64,000 nt of DNA from Cyanobacteria bacterium P01_D01_bin.156 (lineage in GTDB: Bacteria; Cyanobacteriota; Cyanobacteriia; Phormidesmidales; Phormidesmidaceae), in the NCBI GenBank assembly GCA_039024555.1, contig JBCCQQ010000034.1, forward strand, positions 1-64,000, written 5' to 3'. A program made the translations under genes and the position numbers. Positions 58,618-62,567 of the stretch are shown piece by piece. Each line of letters starts with the position of its first letter. The stretch's first letter is position 1. The notes beneath the pieces are model-generated. The model had not been told where the DNA came from, made no database searches, and saw only the letters and a list, made by a program, of their open reading frames with translations.

Positions 58618-59193
58618 ATGACGGCTTTTACCATTACCCTTGATCCCATTGGCACGTTAACAGACGAAGCGTTTTATCAGCTTTGTCGTGCCAACCCAGA
58701 TGTAAAATTTGAGCGCTCGGCCCAGGGAGAGTTGATTATTATGTCCCCGACCGGTGGTGAAAGTGGTCGTCGCAATGCGGATATTACAGTTGATTTAGGC
58801 ATTTGGAATCGACAAGCCAAACTGGGCTATACGTTTGATTCGTCCACTTGTTTTAAGTTACCCAATGGGGCGGAACGGTCGCCCGATGCGTCGTGGATTG
58901 AGCGCAGCCGTTGGGAAGCGTTGAGCGCAACAGATCGGGAAAAGTTTCCTCCCATCGCGCCAGATTTTGTTATCGAGCTACGGTCGGCGACAAATCGGTT
59001 GGTGACTTTGCAGGCGAAAATGGAGGAGTATCGGGAAAATGGCGTGCGGTTGGGGTGGTTGATCGATCCGCAGCATAAAACGGTGGAGATTTATCGTCCG
59101 GGGCAGGTTGTTGAAGTGTTGCAAGCTCCGAAACAGATTGATGGCGGAGATATTTTGCCAGGGTTTGTATTAAACGTGGAGAATATCCTGTAG
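58618..59193 (+). CDS. Uma2-family endonuclease
   Basis: FDSSTCFKLPNGAERSPDASW, PDFVIELRS, LGWLIDP. Confidence 0.92.
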   Translation: MTAFTITLDPIGTLTDEAFYQLCRANPDVKFERSAQGELIIMSPTGGESGRRNADITVDLGIWNRQAKLGYTFDSSTCFKLPNGAERSPDASWIERSRWEALSATDREKFPPIAPDFVIELRSATNRLVTLQAKMEEYRENGVRLGWLIDPQHKTVEIYRPGQVVEVLQAPKQIDGGDILPGFVLNVENIL

Positions 59194-59379: not shown

Positions 59380-61389
59380 TTAGGGTTTGATGCCTTGGCG
59401 ATAATCTTCTAGGGGCATGGCAGCAAAGTGTTCTTGGAGGGTGCGGTGTAAAAAGCGAAAGCGACCACCGACACGCTGGAGCAGCAGACGCTCGGTGCAG
59501 TAGTTGAGAAAGTTGGCGTAGAGATAGGGGATTTTGCCGGAGCGGGAGAGGACGAAGCGGAGGGCATAGTGGCGCAGGTAGGCTTCACCACCGCCGTAGG
59601 CCCATGTGCTCCAACAAAGAATGGCAACTCCTGCTGCTGTAGTACGGGCAATTTGGTCACTGGTCAATAGGTTGGTGCTGAAAAGGACAGGGGGTAATGC
59701 GAACCAGAGTAAAAAAGCCGTGGGAACAGATATGGCTAACAAAAATAGGGTGTTTTTGCCGGAATTGAGAATGCCCTGGTTGGGCCGTACCTGGGTTTGA
59801 ATGTCGGCTTTAAAACCTTCGACTAGACCCCCAATCAGACCCAAAATCAGACCCCAAATCAGACCCCAAATCAGACCCCAAATCAGACCCACAATCAGAC
59901 CCAAAATCAGACCCCAAATCAGACCCACAATCAGACCCCAAATCAGACCCACAATCAATTTGTTAAAAAATATTTTTCTCGCGTCGCGAGAAAAATTAAT
60001 TTTCAAAACCTCAACAGTATCAATTGCACTCAGACCCCCAATCAGACCCCCAATCAGACCCACAATCAGACCCACAATCAGACCCCCAATCAGACCCCCA
60101 ATCAGACCCACAATCAGACCCCCAATCAGACCCCAAATCAGACCCCAAATCAGACGCATCTGCCACTTTTCACCACGGGTAGTCAACAAACTGGGCTGCA
60201 TCCGCTCAATCAAAAACTCATCCTGTCCCATATTCTGAGCTAGCCACACCAGCCAGCGGCGAGTTTGCTTTACCGTAGGTGCTTTTTCTGGTTTGTAGTA
60301 CTTACAATTTTTCGCTGTCAGCGACTCTGCCAGCCGAGAGATCACATAGGCATCCAACAGCAGCGTCAGCCTTTCCCGCTCTGTGTCTAACCGCGACCAC
60401 TTCTCTAGATCTAGTTCATTCCGCGCTAGGGTCAACACACTTAGCCACAGGGGCACCCGCACTAGATCCAAAACAGTCTTATCCCGGCTAACCACAGTCC
60501 ACAGTTCGGTTTTGCCAGTCTGTTGCAAATACCGTTCTATTTCTGGTTTCTCTAGCGGCTGCAAACAGATTGCCCCGTTTAGATTTAGTACCGTTTTATA
60601 GGTCTCATATTCCTGTATGCGGCTGCAGACGACGACTTTACCCACCCCCAGGTCCGACCCCAGCCAAGTGTTGATGGCCTGCACACAACCTTCCTGTCGC
60701 TGTGCCGCTAGCTCATCTAAACCATCCAGCAGGGGCAACAGCTTTTTTGCTTCCAGTAGCTCCTGGCCTTTTGCCTCTCGTACCTGATACTTTTCTCGCA
60801 GTTCCTTTACCAGCCACTGGGCGATAGTTTGTTTATCATCCTGCCAGCTGGATAGGTTAAACAGCACCGGTATAGGCTGGTTTACATCATGCTGAGCTTG
60901 CTCTACCAGATTGTTCGCCAGGGCCAGCATAGTGGTGGTTTTGCCTGCTCCTGGCTGTCCCAAAATCAGTAGCTTGCCTGCAATGTCTTTGCGGTCAAAA
61001 ACTTGACCAATAGTCTGACCAGAAGGGATAGGTTCAGGGGCTTGTTTACCCACTTTTACTTCCATAGACCAGGGGCAGCTGACTTGCTCTGGAGCCTGTT
61101 CTTTCCCAAGCTCAATAAACACCTGATTGTGGAGCGACTGTGCTTGCCGATAGTCAACTTCTTTGGCAACCTCGTTGAGCAAAGTTTGCTCTAAGCTAGG
61201 ACGTTTTTCGGTGGATGCTGCTTGAACAATGACCGTATGTCCTTGGCCATCTACCAGAACATTGTGGCTGCCAACATTTGCCTTGTTTTGATTGCCCTGG
61301 AGTGTGTGAGCATGATCCCCCTGGGCAATGTTGGTGTCTTGCACAGAGGAATCTTGGATTTCGAATTCATGCTCGGGGGGATTGGGCAT
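59380..61389 (-). CDS. NACHT (STAND) NTPase with C-terminal Gly/Leu-repeat transmembrane region
   Basis: Walker A GQPGAGKTT, Walker B LLDGLDE, VVCSR..EY, P.WL; GLIx repeats; GG.FRFLH..LQEHFA. Confidence 0.92.
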   Translation of the reverse strand: MPNPPEHEFEIQDSSVQDTNIAQGDHAHTLQGNQNKANVGSHNVLVDGQGHTVIVQAASTEKRPSLEQTLLNEVAKEVDYRQAQSLHNQVFIELGKEQAPEQVSCPWSMEVKVGKQAPEPIPSGQTIGQVFDRKDIAGKLLILGQPGAGKTTTMLALANNLVEQAQHDVNQPIPVLFNLSSWQDDKQTIAQWLVKELREKYQVREAKGQELLEAKKLLPLLDGLDELAAQRQEGCVQAINTWLGSDLGVGKVVVCSRIQEYETYKTVLNLNGAICLQPLEKPEIERYLQQTGKTELWTVVSRDKTVLDLVRVPLWLSVLTLARNELDLEKWSRLDTERERLTLLLDAYVISRLAESLTAKNCKYYKPEKAPTVKQTRRWLVWLAQNMGQDEFLIERMQPSLLTTRGEKWQMRLIWGLIWGLIGGLIVGLIGGLIGGLIVGLIVGLIGGLIGGLSAIDTVEVLKINFSRDARKIFFNKLIVGLIWGLIVGLIWGLILGLIVGLIWGLIWGLIWGLILGLIGGLVEGFKADIQTQVRPNQGILNSGKNTLFLLAISVPTAFLLWFALPPVLFSTNLLTSDQIARTTAAGVAILCWSTWAYGGGEAYLRHYALRFVLSRSGKIPYLYANFLNYCTERLLLQRVGGRFRFLHRTLQEHFAAMPLEDYRQGIKP
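59826..60153. repeat. Two blocks of 12-bp coding tandem repeats (about 11 and about 10 units)
   Basis: AATCAGACCC(NN) units at ~59826-59957 and ~60031-60153 encoding GLIW/GLIV/GLIG/GLIL. Confidence 0.95.
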
Positions 61390-61405
61390 GGGGGATGGGA
61401 TTTGT

Positions 61406-61470
61406 TGGGTTTCGCAGGGTGTGGGTGTGGGATTTAAAGATTAGGGTTTGGGTGGCTCAACCCAACCTAC
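61406..61470. repeat. REP-like remnant
   Basis: GTTGGGTTTCG ... CTCAACCCAACCTAC (reverse complement starts GTAGGTTGGGTTGAG). Confidence 0.55.
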
Positions 61471-61500
61471 AGTTTGGGCTATCGAATTTCATGATGGGAA

Positions 61501-61917
61501 TTAAAACAATGCGGCCACACCTAGCCAGGTGCCAATTTTTAGGGCAATGGGTAGAACCGTTTGCCACAATCCTTTAGCCGCATCTACAGTTTTACTCGCT
61601 TCCGTGATGGTTTCACCCATGCTTTGCAGGTTGGTTTTAATGGCATCCTTTTTCGGTTCATCCTTAGCGGCTGACTTTTTTGCAGCCTTGGCATAGGTGG
61701 CAGCTTCGTCTTTGAGCTCCTCTGGTAACTCTGCCTGGGCAATTAGGGTTTCGATCTGGCCGAGCAGGTCTACCACCTCAGTTTGAGTAATAGGTTCAGC
61801 CCCAGCTGCCTGATTTACCTGGTTGTTATTACCTTGAACTGTTTGATTATGGTCTCCCTGGACAATGTTTACACCGGAAACAGTGCTACCGGAAATGGAA
61901 AAGCCTGGTTCTGCCAT
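61501..61917 (-). CDS. Small protein: N-terminal Q/N/G-rich motif + helical domain with hydrophobic C-terminus
   Basis: ATG 61917 preferred. MAEPGFSISGSTVSGVNIVQGDHNQTVQGNNNQVNQ ... GLWQTVLPIALKIGTWLGVAALF. Confidence 0.8.
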   Translation of the reverse strand: MAEPGFSISGSTVSGVNIVQGDHNQTVQGNNNQVNQAAGAEPITQTEVVDLLGQIETLIAQAELPEELKDEAATYAKAAKKSAAKDEPKKDAIKTNLQSMGETITEASKTVDAAKGLWQTVLPIALKIGTWLGVAALF

Positions 61918-61989: not shown

Positions 61990-62450
61990 ATGTCTGACAT
62001 TGTTATTAAGCTAGAGCGTCATCGGGTGGAAGACCTGTTTGCGCCCTACGAATAGATGATTGGTAAAGACTTTCCAGGCTATCGCAACCACGTTTATCGC
62101 ACCATAACCTACGCCATGCATTTTCTGGGTGACGCCACTGCCCATGAACAGCTTGTAGAGACAGCCTTTGTGCATCACGACATTGGTCTTTGGTCAGATC
62201 ATGGGTTGGCATATCTAGAACCATCCGAGGTGTTGGCCCTGGCTGACAATAAAAAATGTGGGTGGGGACTGGACCCAGATGTACTGCGTGGGAAATTCAC
62301 TAGTACCACAAAATATCTCCCTACAAAGGCCCACACCAGGAGGTAATTGAAGCTTGCCGTAAGCCAGACTGGATCGATGCAACCAAGGGGTAACTGCAAA
62401 AGGGTATTAGCAAAGATGAGATCGCAAGGGTAAATGCGGCTATACTACCC
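61990..62450 (+). pseudogene. Disrupted HD-like phosphohydrolase gene
   Basis: MSDIVIKLERHRVEDLFAPYE*MIGKDFPGYRNHVYR...HHDIGLW; frameshift near 62293, then IH*YHKISPYKGPH...ACRKPDWIDATKG*. Confidence 0.75.
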
Positions 62451-62567
62451 GGCCAGAACTGGCCTATGCCCGCATGTTAACGGAGGATAAGCATAACGGT
62501 TGTAGTCTATTAGCAACAATTGGTATAGCCTACTTCTGTTTTTTTTGCAGCGCTAGAGGCTGCCAGA

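Follow-up and report, generated by a model that had tools for sequence, protein, structure and literature searches.

The subject of this work is a pair of neighbouring genes of a cyanobacterium (Cyanobacteria bacterium P01_D01_bin.156, contig JBCCQQ010000034.1, the first 64,000 nucleotides of which are the window analysed here), encoding a small helical protein and a NACHT NTPase with a hydrophobic C-terminal region, which carry a common amyloid-like motif at their N-termini. The closest described systems, compared through passages of the papers cited, are the BASS1-10 Bell/NLR pairs (Dyrka et al., 10.1101/2020.01.06.895854), the Bab/Agp pairs of BASS11 (10.1101/2024.11.07.622273), the effector-associated domains (EADs; Kaur et al. 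2020, PMC7159879) and the transmembrane (TM)-type bacterial NACHT proteins (Kibby et al., 10.1101/2022.07.19.500537). The BASS motifs, and that of BASS11 as well, form amyloid and relay a signal to a small helical protein, Bab/Agp-type pairs have been shown to give phage defence, and the TM-type NACHTs are thought to sense membrane signals. Published screens targeted sensor N-termini and effector C-termini (10.1101/2020.01.06.895854, PMC9815663, PMC12261475), and a 2021 review pointed to the bias of such screens towards this layout and asked whether signalling amyloids occur beyond it (PMC7889193).

The pair of the window is like BASS1-10 in that adjacent and collinear cyanobacterial genes share a short, pair-matched motif of pseudo-repeats rich in Q, N, G, V and I, which is found at the N-terminus of the NLR-like protein and is common to a small helical protein, and in that TIR and CHAT proteins are alternative carriers of the motif. 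It is unlike BASS1-10 in that the motif is N-terminal to the helical domain and never at the C-terminal end, where the BASS effectors carry theirs, the hydrophobic helix is the last and not, as in Bell, the first, a membrane region takes the place of TPR or WD repeats in the sensor, and the partners include iSTAND, FGE-sulfatase (FGS) and PDZ-type proteins and an unknown family. A motif linking an NLR or non-NLR sensor to a small helical effector encoded by the adjacent gene is also the principle of Bab/Agp; however, Bab combines a C-terminal motif with an N-terminal killing helix. With EADs the family shares the presence of two copies in adjacent genes that are mutually closer than outside copies, the fusion to iSTAND, STAND and FGS components and the N-terminal position permitted on both partners, but EADs are folded helical or mixed domains, whereas the element found here is a low-complexity segment of 30 residues with no predicted monomer fold, and no EAD match was obtained in Pfam scans of the pair proteins and 30 family members. 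Finally, the D[GAS]hDE type of Walker B sequence and the probable multi-TM C-terminal sensor recall the TM-type NACHTs, which are abundant in cyanobacteria, with the differences that no N-terminal effector is fused here and that amyloid motifs are unmentioned in the passages of that paper. As the effector does not end in the motif and the element common to both proteins is no folded domain, the pair was filed under neither BASS nor EAD.

The family is real and general, and apparently represents an undescribed variant of the amyloid-type coupling between sensor and effector, in which the output domain is new; a putative function is assigned to it below. No description of it was found in the passages compared of PMC8195603, PMC9815663, PMC12261475, PMC13506858, PMC7159879, PMC13581612, PMC10907252, PMC12881547, PMC7889193 and PMC8086366, nor in those of 10.1101/2020.01.06.895854, 10.1101/2024.11.07.622273, 10.1101/2022.07.19.500537, 10.1101/2024.01.29.577857 and 10.64898/2026.10.19.760177; literature searches likewise returned nothing closer, and novelty may also depend on the BASS paper in its final journal form and on the bioRxiv supplements, which lie outside this comparison.

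The gene pair and its shared motif

The small gene is upstream and the NACHT gene downstream, on the same strand and separated by 111 base pairs (bp), with the following features (aa, amino acid positions).

61501..61917, minus strand: small cassette gene (138 aa; open reading frame with translation, the ATG being the start used by homologues)
61822..61911, minus strand: motif on the small protein (aa 3-32; type A, 8-residue pseudo-repeat)
61504..61791, minus strand: four-helix bundle of the small protein (aa 43-138; AlphaFold2 helices 45-61, 66-83, 90-108 and 112-132)
59380..61389, minus strand: NACHT NTPase gene (669 aa; motif, NACHT module and hydrophobic Gly-Leu-Ile-rich C-terminal region)
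61285..61374, minus strand: motif on the NACHT protein (aa 6-35; type A)
60655..60969, minus strand: NACHT core (aa 141-245; Pfam PF05729, E 5.5e-9)
59590..60156, minus strand: hydrophobic C-terminal region of the NACHT protein (approx. aa 412-600; hydropathy peaks at aa 425, 485 and 547)

The Q/N/G-rich motifs of 30 residues align without gaps and are identical at 16 of 30 positions. Their DNA is identical at 52 of 90 positions (21, 19 and 12 of 30 for the first, second and third codon positions, respectively), and the 60-base flanks match at 19/60 and 11/60, which corresponds to background. When each N-terminus was compared with 66,379 stop-to-stop open reading frames (ORFs) of the genome, only the partner (E approx. 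1.5e-5) and one other NACHT protein were retrieved, the next match having an E value of 0.026 or worse. The likeness, first proposed in an earlier note made from the DNA letters alone, is thus confirmed by realignment and by the genome-wide ORF search, and it does not spill into the flanking DNA. Other statements of that note also hold: the motif is N-terminal on both partners, the remainder of the two proteins is unrelated (a Pfam NACHT domain in one and no family in the other), a membrane-anchored NACHT protein agrees with the intact NACHT module and the hydrophobic C-terminal region, and the amyloid-like, Q/N/G-rich character of the motif agrees with the composition of BASS-type motifs. With respect to composition, Q is enriched 3.2-fold, N 2.6-fold and G 1.9-fold, S, I and V are also enriched, and K, P and L are reduced to approximately 0.3-fold; these values, along with the length (the criterion being about 25 residues), fit the BASS-type description.

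In this genome two forms of the motif were distinguished, namely type A, an 8-residue QGD-N repeat that is found in the pair of the window, and type B, with a VQIGG-AG-D pattern; for the comparison of cassettes with partners across the family, the type labels are regular expressions that were written after seeing the data and are only descriptive. The number of repeats differs among homologues in whole 8-residue units, the motif of the small protein being one unit shorter than in its close homologues. In two single-chain models the motif is without secondary structure and of low confidence (predicted local distance difference test, pLDDT, below 50), and no stable fold is obtained even with five repeats. 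Prediction of a complex of the two motif regions, with two copies of each, returned a score of 0.02 and a mark of 0.32, which is evidence neither way. No RHIM or PP match was found by Pfam scan among 30 family members. By eye, type B has the word QAGRD in common with set C01 of the BASS data and type A the word GDHN/GDNN with set C03 (portion of the PMC8086366 supplement compared), labels that presumably stand for BASS1 and BASS3; the longer words GQAGRD, IGGIAG and GDHNQT occur 0 times in the compared part of the PMC8086366 data file. In the same supplement a published BASS NLR, BAZ20405.1, has a segment resembling type A-related motifs ahead of its assigned motif in the N-terminus, hinting that this protein may be a sensor wired to two outputs.

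In the NACHT protein, where the motif sits ahead of PF05729, Walker A (aa 144-152) and Walker B, with its DGLDE signature (aa 222-226), are intact and invariant across 8 homologues, and the latter agrees with the D[GAS]hDE form by which bacterial NACHT (NLR-related) proteins are recognized. No effector domain of its own was found in the 669 residues by Pfam scan. The C-terminal region is probably a membrane-embedded sensor, a role suggested by analogy with the TM-type NACHT class. Two 12-bp tandem arrays of 10.5 copies (window positions 59825-59950 and 60030-60155) encode the Gly-Leu-Ile repeats of this region, the length of which could therefore shift quickly.

Matching of the motif within gene pairs

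The profile of the family matches 55 of 173 genomes of the order (weak matches to a wider superfamily included), 24 of 151 genomes of the class and 22 of 401 genomes of the phylum (with 10 candidates scored per genome), and 260 cluster representatives reach an E value of 1e-10. A first set of 65 distinct ORFs was assembled, 58 of which had a strong bundle score; 5 ORFs scoring below 80 bits against the bundle profile and 1 fragment were removed from the main count, as were 3 cassettes (motif plus bundle) at contig ends. In this set 45/54 cassettes are followed by a gene whose N-terminus bears a matching motif. Behind 2 others the partner is broken, and the remaining 7, including 5 fusions, are solitary; among the stand-alone cassettes that could be evaluated, 40/43 precede a matched partner. 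A second set, fetched later, contributed 11 intact new cassettes (7 matched and 4 solitary), bringing the total to 52/65 evaluable cassettes that precede a gene with the matching motif variant.

Over 49 intact loci with a downstream ORF the score of cognate motifs was 67.4, compared with 39.5 ± 2.2 for permuted pairs, none of 100,000 permutations exceeding 49.7, and in the second set (9 loci with a downstream ORF, 7/9 matched) the observed value was reached by 92 of 100,000 permutations, values that overstate independence because the loci are kin. When compared with composition shuffles, 45/49 cognate pairs were significant, and between distant loci the cognate advantage was present in 93-99% of the comparisons. 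At silent sites identical codons were found in 297/676 cases (0.44) in cognate pairs, as opposed to 0.375 expected and 0.388 in non-cognate ones. Taken at the level of sequence, these comparisons demonstrate that selection on the protein maintains the match of the motif between the two genes of a pair. The pairing of the NACHT protein with its neighbour, as claimed from this one locus, is real and general, and the motif is not spread over proteins regardless of gene pairs, the matching staying within them.

The 45 matched partners comprise 26 NACHT-type P-loop proteins, 1 nSTAND1-WD40, 2 iSTAND, 3 FGS and 2 PDZ-type proteins, 6 members of an unknown 290-aa family and 5 that are other or cut off. 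Cassette and partner carry the same type label in 38/45 cases, the other 7 being unlabelled on one side. In one clade of cassettes with type A motifs (9 rows, support 95 in a quick tree) the partners are NACHT, FGS and iSTAND proteins, each of which carries type A as well; therefore, unrelated partner families acquired the local motif. The unannotated family of approximately 290 aa that bears the matched motif (L003:2749-3612, L020, L024, L028, L030, L034) gave no Pfam, PADLOC or clear Atlas match.

Motif carriers in the same genome

Motif profiles were built without the sequences of this genome and applied with a cut-off of E <1e-5, the best score of a reversed-sequence control being 9.4 bits. 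These held-out profiles retrieve 11 of the 5608 ORFs, of which 3 carry type A and 8 type B, and the window NACHT scores 33.0 bits on the type A profile, compared with 6.5 bits on type B. As the earlier note had suggested that such a profile might reveal, occurrence is paired: 10/11 motif ORFs lie in cassette-partner clusters, counting one NACHT with a broken upstream cassette, and the eleventh codes for a type A NACHT that has no cassette, so that two NACHTs of the genome have lost their cassette in cis. Three further cassette genes, each preceding a partner, carry the type B variant, and all four intact cassettes are stand-alone genes. No motif-bearing TIR or CHAT protein was detected among the 5608 ORFs with the held-out profiles.

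The type A NACHT without a cassette (G000 C6:86041-88101, L004; L007), which could use the small protein of the window in trans, adjoins a receiver gene. At the same site genome G045 has a full pair, and this site looks like a swap hot spot because the pair found there is nearer to the pair of the window than to the cassette-less NACHT. The type B pairs (G000 C1:14000-28000, C12:1-7100, C124; L001-L003) are located among ORFs that by eye are ParA/ParB-like, relaxase-like and toxin-antitoxin-like, surroundings as on a plasmid or an integrative element. On C1 one cassette is followed by two motif-bearing NACHTs, and on C12 the NACHT ends at 305 aa near a transposase-like ORF.

The four-helix bundle and its fusions

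Positions conserved in the bundle over 157 homologues include P88, K90, L97, P123, W131 and G133. The bundle ends in an amphipathic tail, the last 13 residues of which are almost uncharged, and the best 19-residue hydropathy of the C-terminal helix is 1.69. With respect to the hydrophobic C-terminal helix that had been proposed to damage membranes, the helix is amphipathic and not clearly transmembrane, and the proposal is plausible but weak.

No Pfam or NCBIfam family was assigned to the small protein in 30 homologues. Pfam scans did not bear out either of two leads from the Atlas, DUF4404 (0.91, for 23% of the cluster concerned) and TCAD2 (0.88). When the bundle was searched by fold among solved and viral structures, generic helical bundles were the only result (best Z 11.0-12.2), with no MLKL, HeLo or Bab chains among the matches listed; at the sequence level solved structures offered a single weak match (E 0.0018), and these searches of sequence and fold did not link the small protein to Bab. 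The bundle is like the C-terminal half of the PADLOC model PDC-M14B (Payne et al., 10.1101/2024.01.29.577857, passages compared), a candidate phage-defence model, matching positions approximately 150-265 of 267 with E 4.5e-7 here and 1e-10 for a paralogue; the match is weak and half-length, the comparison extending over that portion only, and the NACHT protein has no PDC-M14 match, so that membership in PDC-M14 was rejected.

The bundle is C-terminal in 157/158 proteins and, among the full-length rows listed, a Q/N/G/S-rich segment nearly always precedes it. In 58 long forms scanned, the preceding part carries pentapeptide repeats (22), CHAT (8), TIR (4), AbiTii (2), TRADD-N (1), Roc-COR (1) or PMT (1) or matches no family (19), and the partner and fusion domains are typical of conflict systems. 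A Met is present 35-65 residues before the bundle in 45/60 long forms, as opposed to 13 expected. Among 15 fusions that were fetched, 13 have such a Met, and at the best candidate a ribosome-binding-like site is found in 10/13, compared with 6/50 other internal Mets, a ratio that is favoured by choosing the best Met and that comes from many kin. Since the in-frame Met and the ribosome-binding-like site precede the motif, translation of the cassette by itself probably also starts within the fusions; otherwise, these features are relics of fusion. A gene-within-gene arrangement is suggested in the pentapeptide and CHAT fusions L044, L047-L050, L054, L056, L059, L060 and L033. A wider superfamily of similar C-terminal bundles behind a G/N-rich segment was also observed (G000 C117:4688-5083, C61:37093-37737, C31:17268-19388, C41:31360-32883; L082); L082 is a CHAT fusion in which the segment is again common to the N-terminus of the next gene.

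Proposed mechanism and alternatives

NACHT proteins oligomerize on sensing. In the mechanism proposed here, the membrane-anchored NACHT would sense a membrane or infection cue and oligomerize, as expected from its family, thereby clustering the N-terminal motifs into a beta-arch or beta-solenoid seed, which would serve as a template for the small protein, its disordered N-terminus adopting the same fold. Polymerization would then activate the four-helix bundle, in the simplest case by freeing the conserved amphipathic C-terminal helix to attack the membrane, so that the cell would be stopped or killed. Separate motif variants would constitute separate circuits within one cell. The parts of this scheme are held with different strength: homotypic coupling through the motif is highly probable, a role in defence is likely, an amyloid-type polymer is more probable than not, and the bundle as the killer is possible with some doubt. 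The bundle is favoured for the latter role because the held-out profiles detect no motif-bearing TIR or CHAT proteins in the genome and because stand-alone cassettes nearly always precede a matched partner. The pair as a whole, seen as a two-gene defence or cell-death module whose coupling motif is amyloid-like and whose layout is the known one reversed, is an evenly balanced proposal. A broader statement, that this is a widespread amyloid-signalling family of cyanobacteria in which a portable motif-plus-bundle cell-death cassette of reversed topology is present as its own gene or behind an internal start in TIR, CHAT, AbiTii, Roc-COR and pentapeptide genes, is wired by interchangeable motif variants to NACHT, iSTAND, FGS and nSTAND1 sensors, and attacks membranes through a new domain, several such prion-like circuits being insulated from one another in a single cell, is tentative and rather doubtful.

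Several observations weigh against this scheme. The C-terminal helix is moderately hydrophobic in the family as a whole (median best hydropathy 1.31, at least 1.6 in 4/49 homologues), and the bundle is also found behind TIR (4/58) and CHAT (8/58), which are effectors in their own right; these fusions and the solitary copies, together with the moderate hydropathy, speak against the bundle as the killer. Of the evaluable cassettes, 11/65 have no matched neighbour and 2 a broken one. Between close relatives (bundles more than 60% identical) the cognate advantage is small, being positive in 70-76%, and the loci are kin, as mentioned above. The cognate silent-site identity, slightly above background, may reflect some old gene conversion. 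Besides a Uma2 gene, the Pfam scan identified no defence genes among the window neighbours of the pair.

Since the same bundle sits behind TIR and CHAT domains, there is room for a role of the small protein as adaptor, amplifier or brake of the same motif coupling, the output coming from the TIR/CHAT fusions or from the membrane region of the NACHT protein; the bundle would cap the motif and keep it soluble, and the stand-alone form would damp or relay signalling. The fusions behind TIR, CHAT, AbiTii and TRADD-N, the internal start sites, by which long and short forms may be co-produced, the solitary cassettes and the amphipathic rather than transmembrane nature of the last helix are all in its favour. 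However, the four intact cassettes of this genome are all stand-alone and no motif-bearing TIR or CHAT protein was detected beside them with the held-out profiles, 40 of the 43 evaluable stand-alone cassettes of the first set precede a matched partner, the bundle takes the output position after Roc-COR, and two NACHTs here have lost the cassette in cis, so that we consider this role unlikely, while still deserving attention. The motif might instead be a docking tag that is not amyloid, forming a finite beta-strand or beta-roll complex as an unstructured counterpart of the EADs. The genomic grammar is EAD-like (adjacent copies mutually closer, N-terminal position, iSTAND and FGS partners), the number of repeats changes by units of 8 residues, and the N-termini of two partners show weak similarity to a Pfam family of beta-rolls; yet single-chain models yield no stable fold even with five repeats, length and composition fit the BASS motifs, some of which form fibrils (10.1101/2020.01.06.895854), and EADs are described as helical or mixed folded domains in the compared passages of PMC7159879. 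On balance such a tag is improbable.

That the start of the gene was copied by neutral duplication or by gene conversion, or that the motif is a targeting signal common to both proteins, is in our opinion largely refuted and very improbable. The silent-site identity of cognate pairs, a little above expectation, and the usual position of the motif directly after the start codon would be in line with it, but third codon positions agree far less often than first ones (12/30 and 21/30), the flanks are unrelated, matching persists over many families with unrelated partner proteins, several TIR and CHAT fusions carry the motif internally, with no Met, and a general targeting signal needs no pair-specific variants within one genome.

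With the motif taken as the coupling element of a sensor and a candidate executor, this reversed-topology family falls in a blind spot of the published amyloid-motif screens and supplies a candidate new execution domain. It also links amyloid coupling to the iSTAND/FGS conflict systems of multicellular bacteria, and may be the output of the many cyanobacterial membrane NACHTs that lack an effector. Furthermore, it offers a natural set of matched motif variants suited to direct tests of seeding specificity.

Genomic surroundings

Promoter-like sites are at chance level (3 found, 3.5 expected). Upstream of the pair (window positions 62006-62567) there is an apparently broken gene with an ORF of 96 aa at 62056-62346 that has no Pfam family, and the Uma2 gene is located on the other side, at 58618-59193. 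The closest named relatives of the pair proteins come from Leptolyngbyaceae-type cyanobacteria, and for this reason the host may be filamentous.

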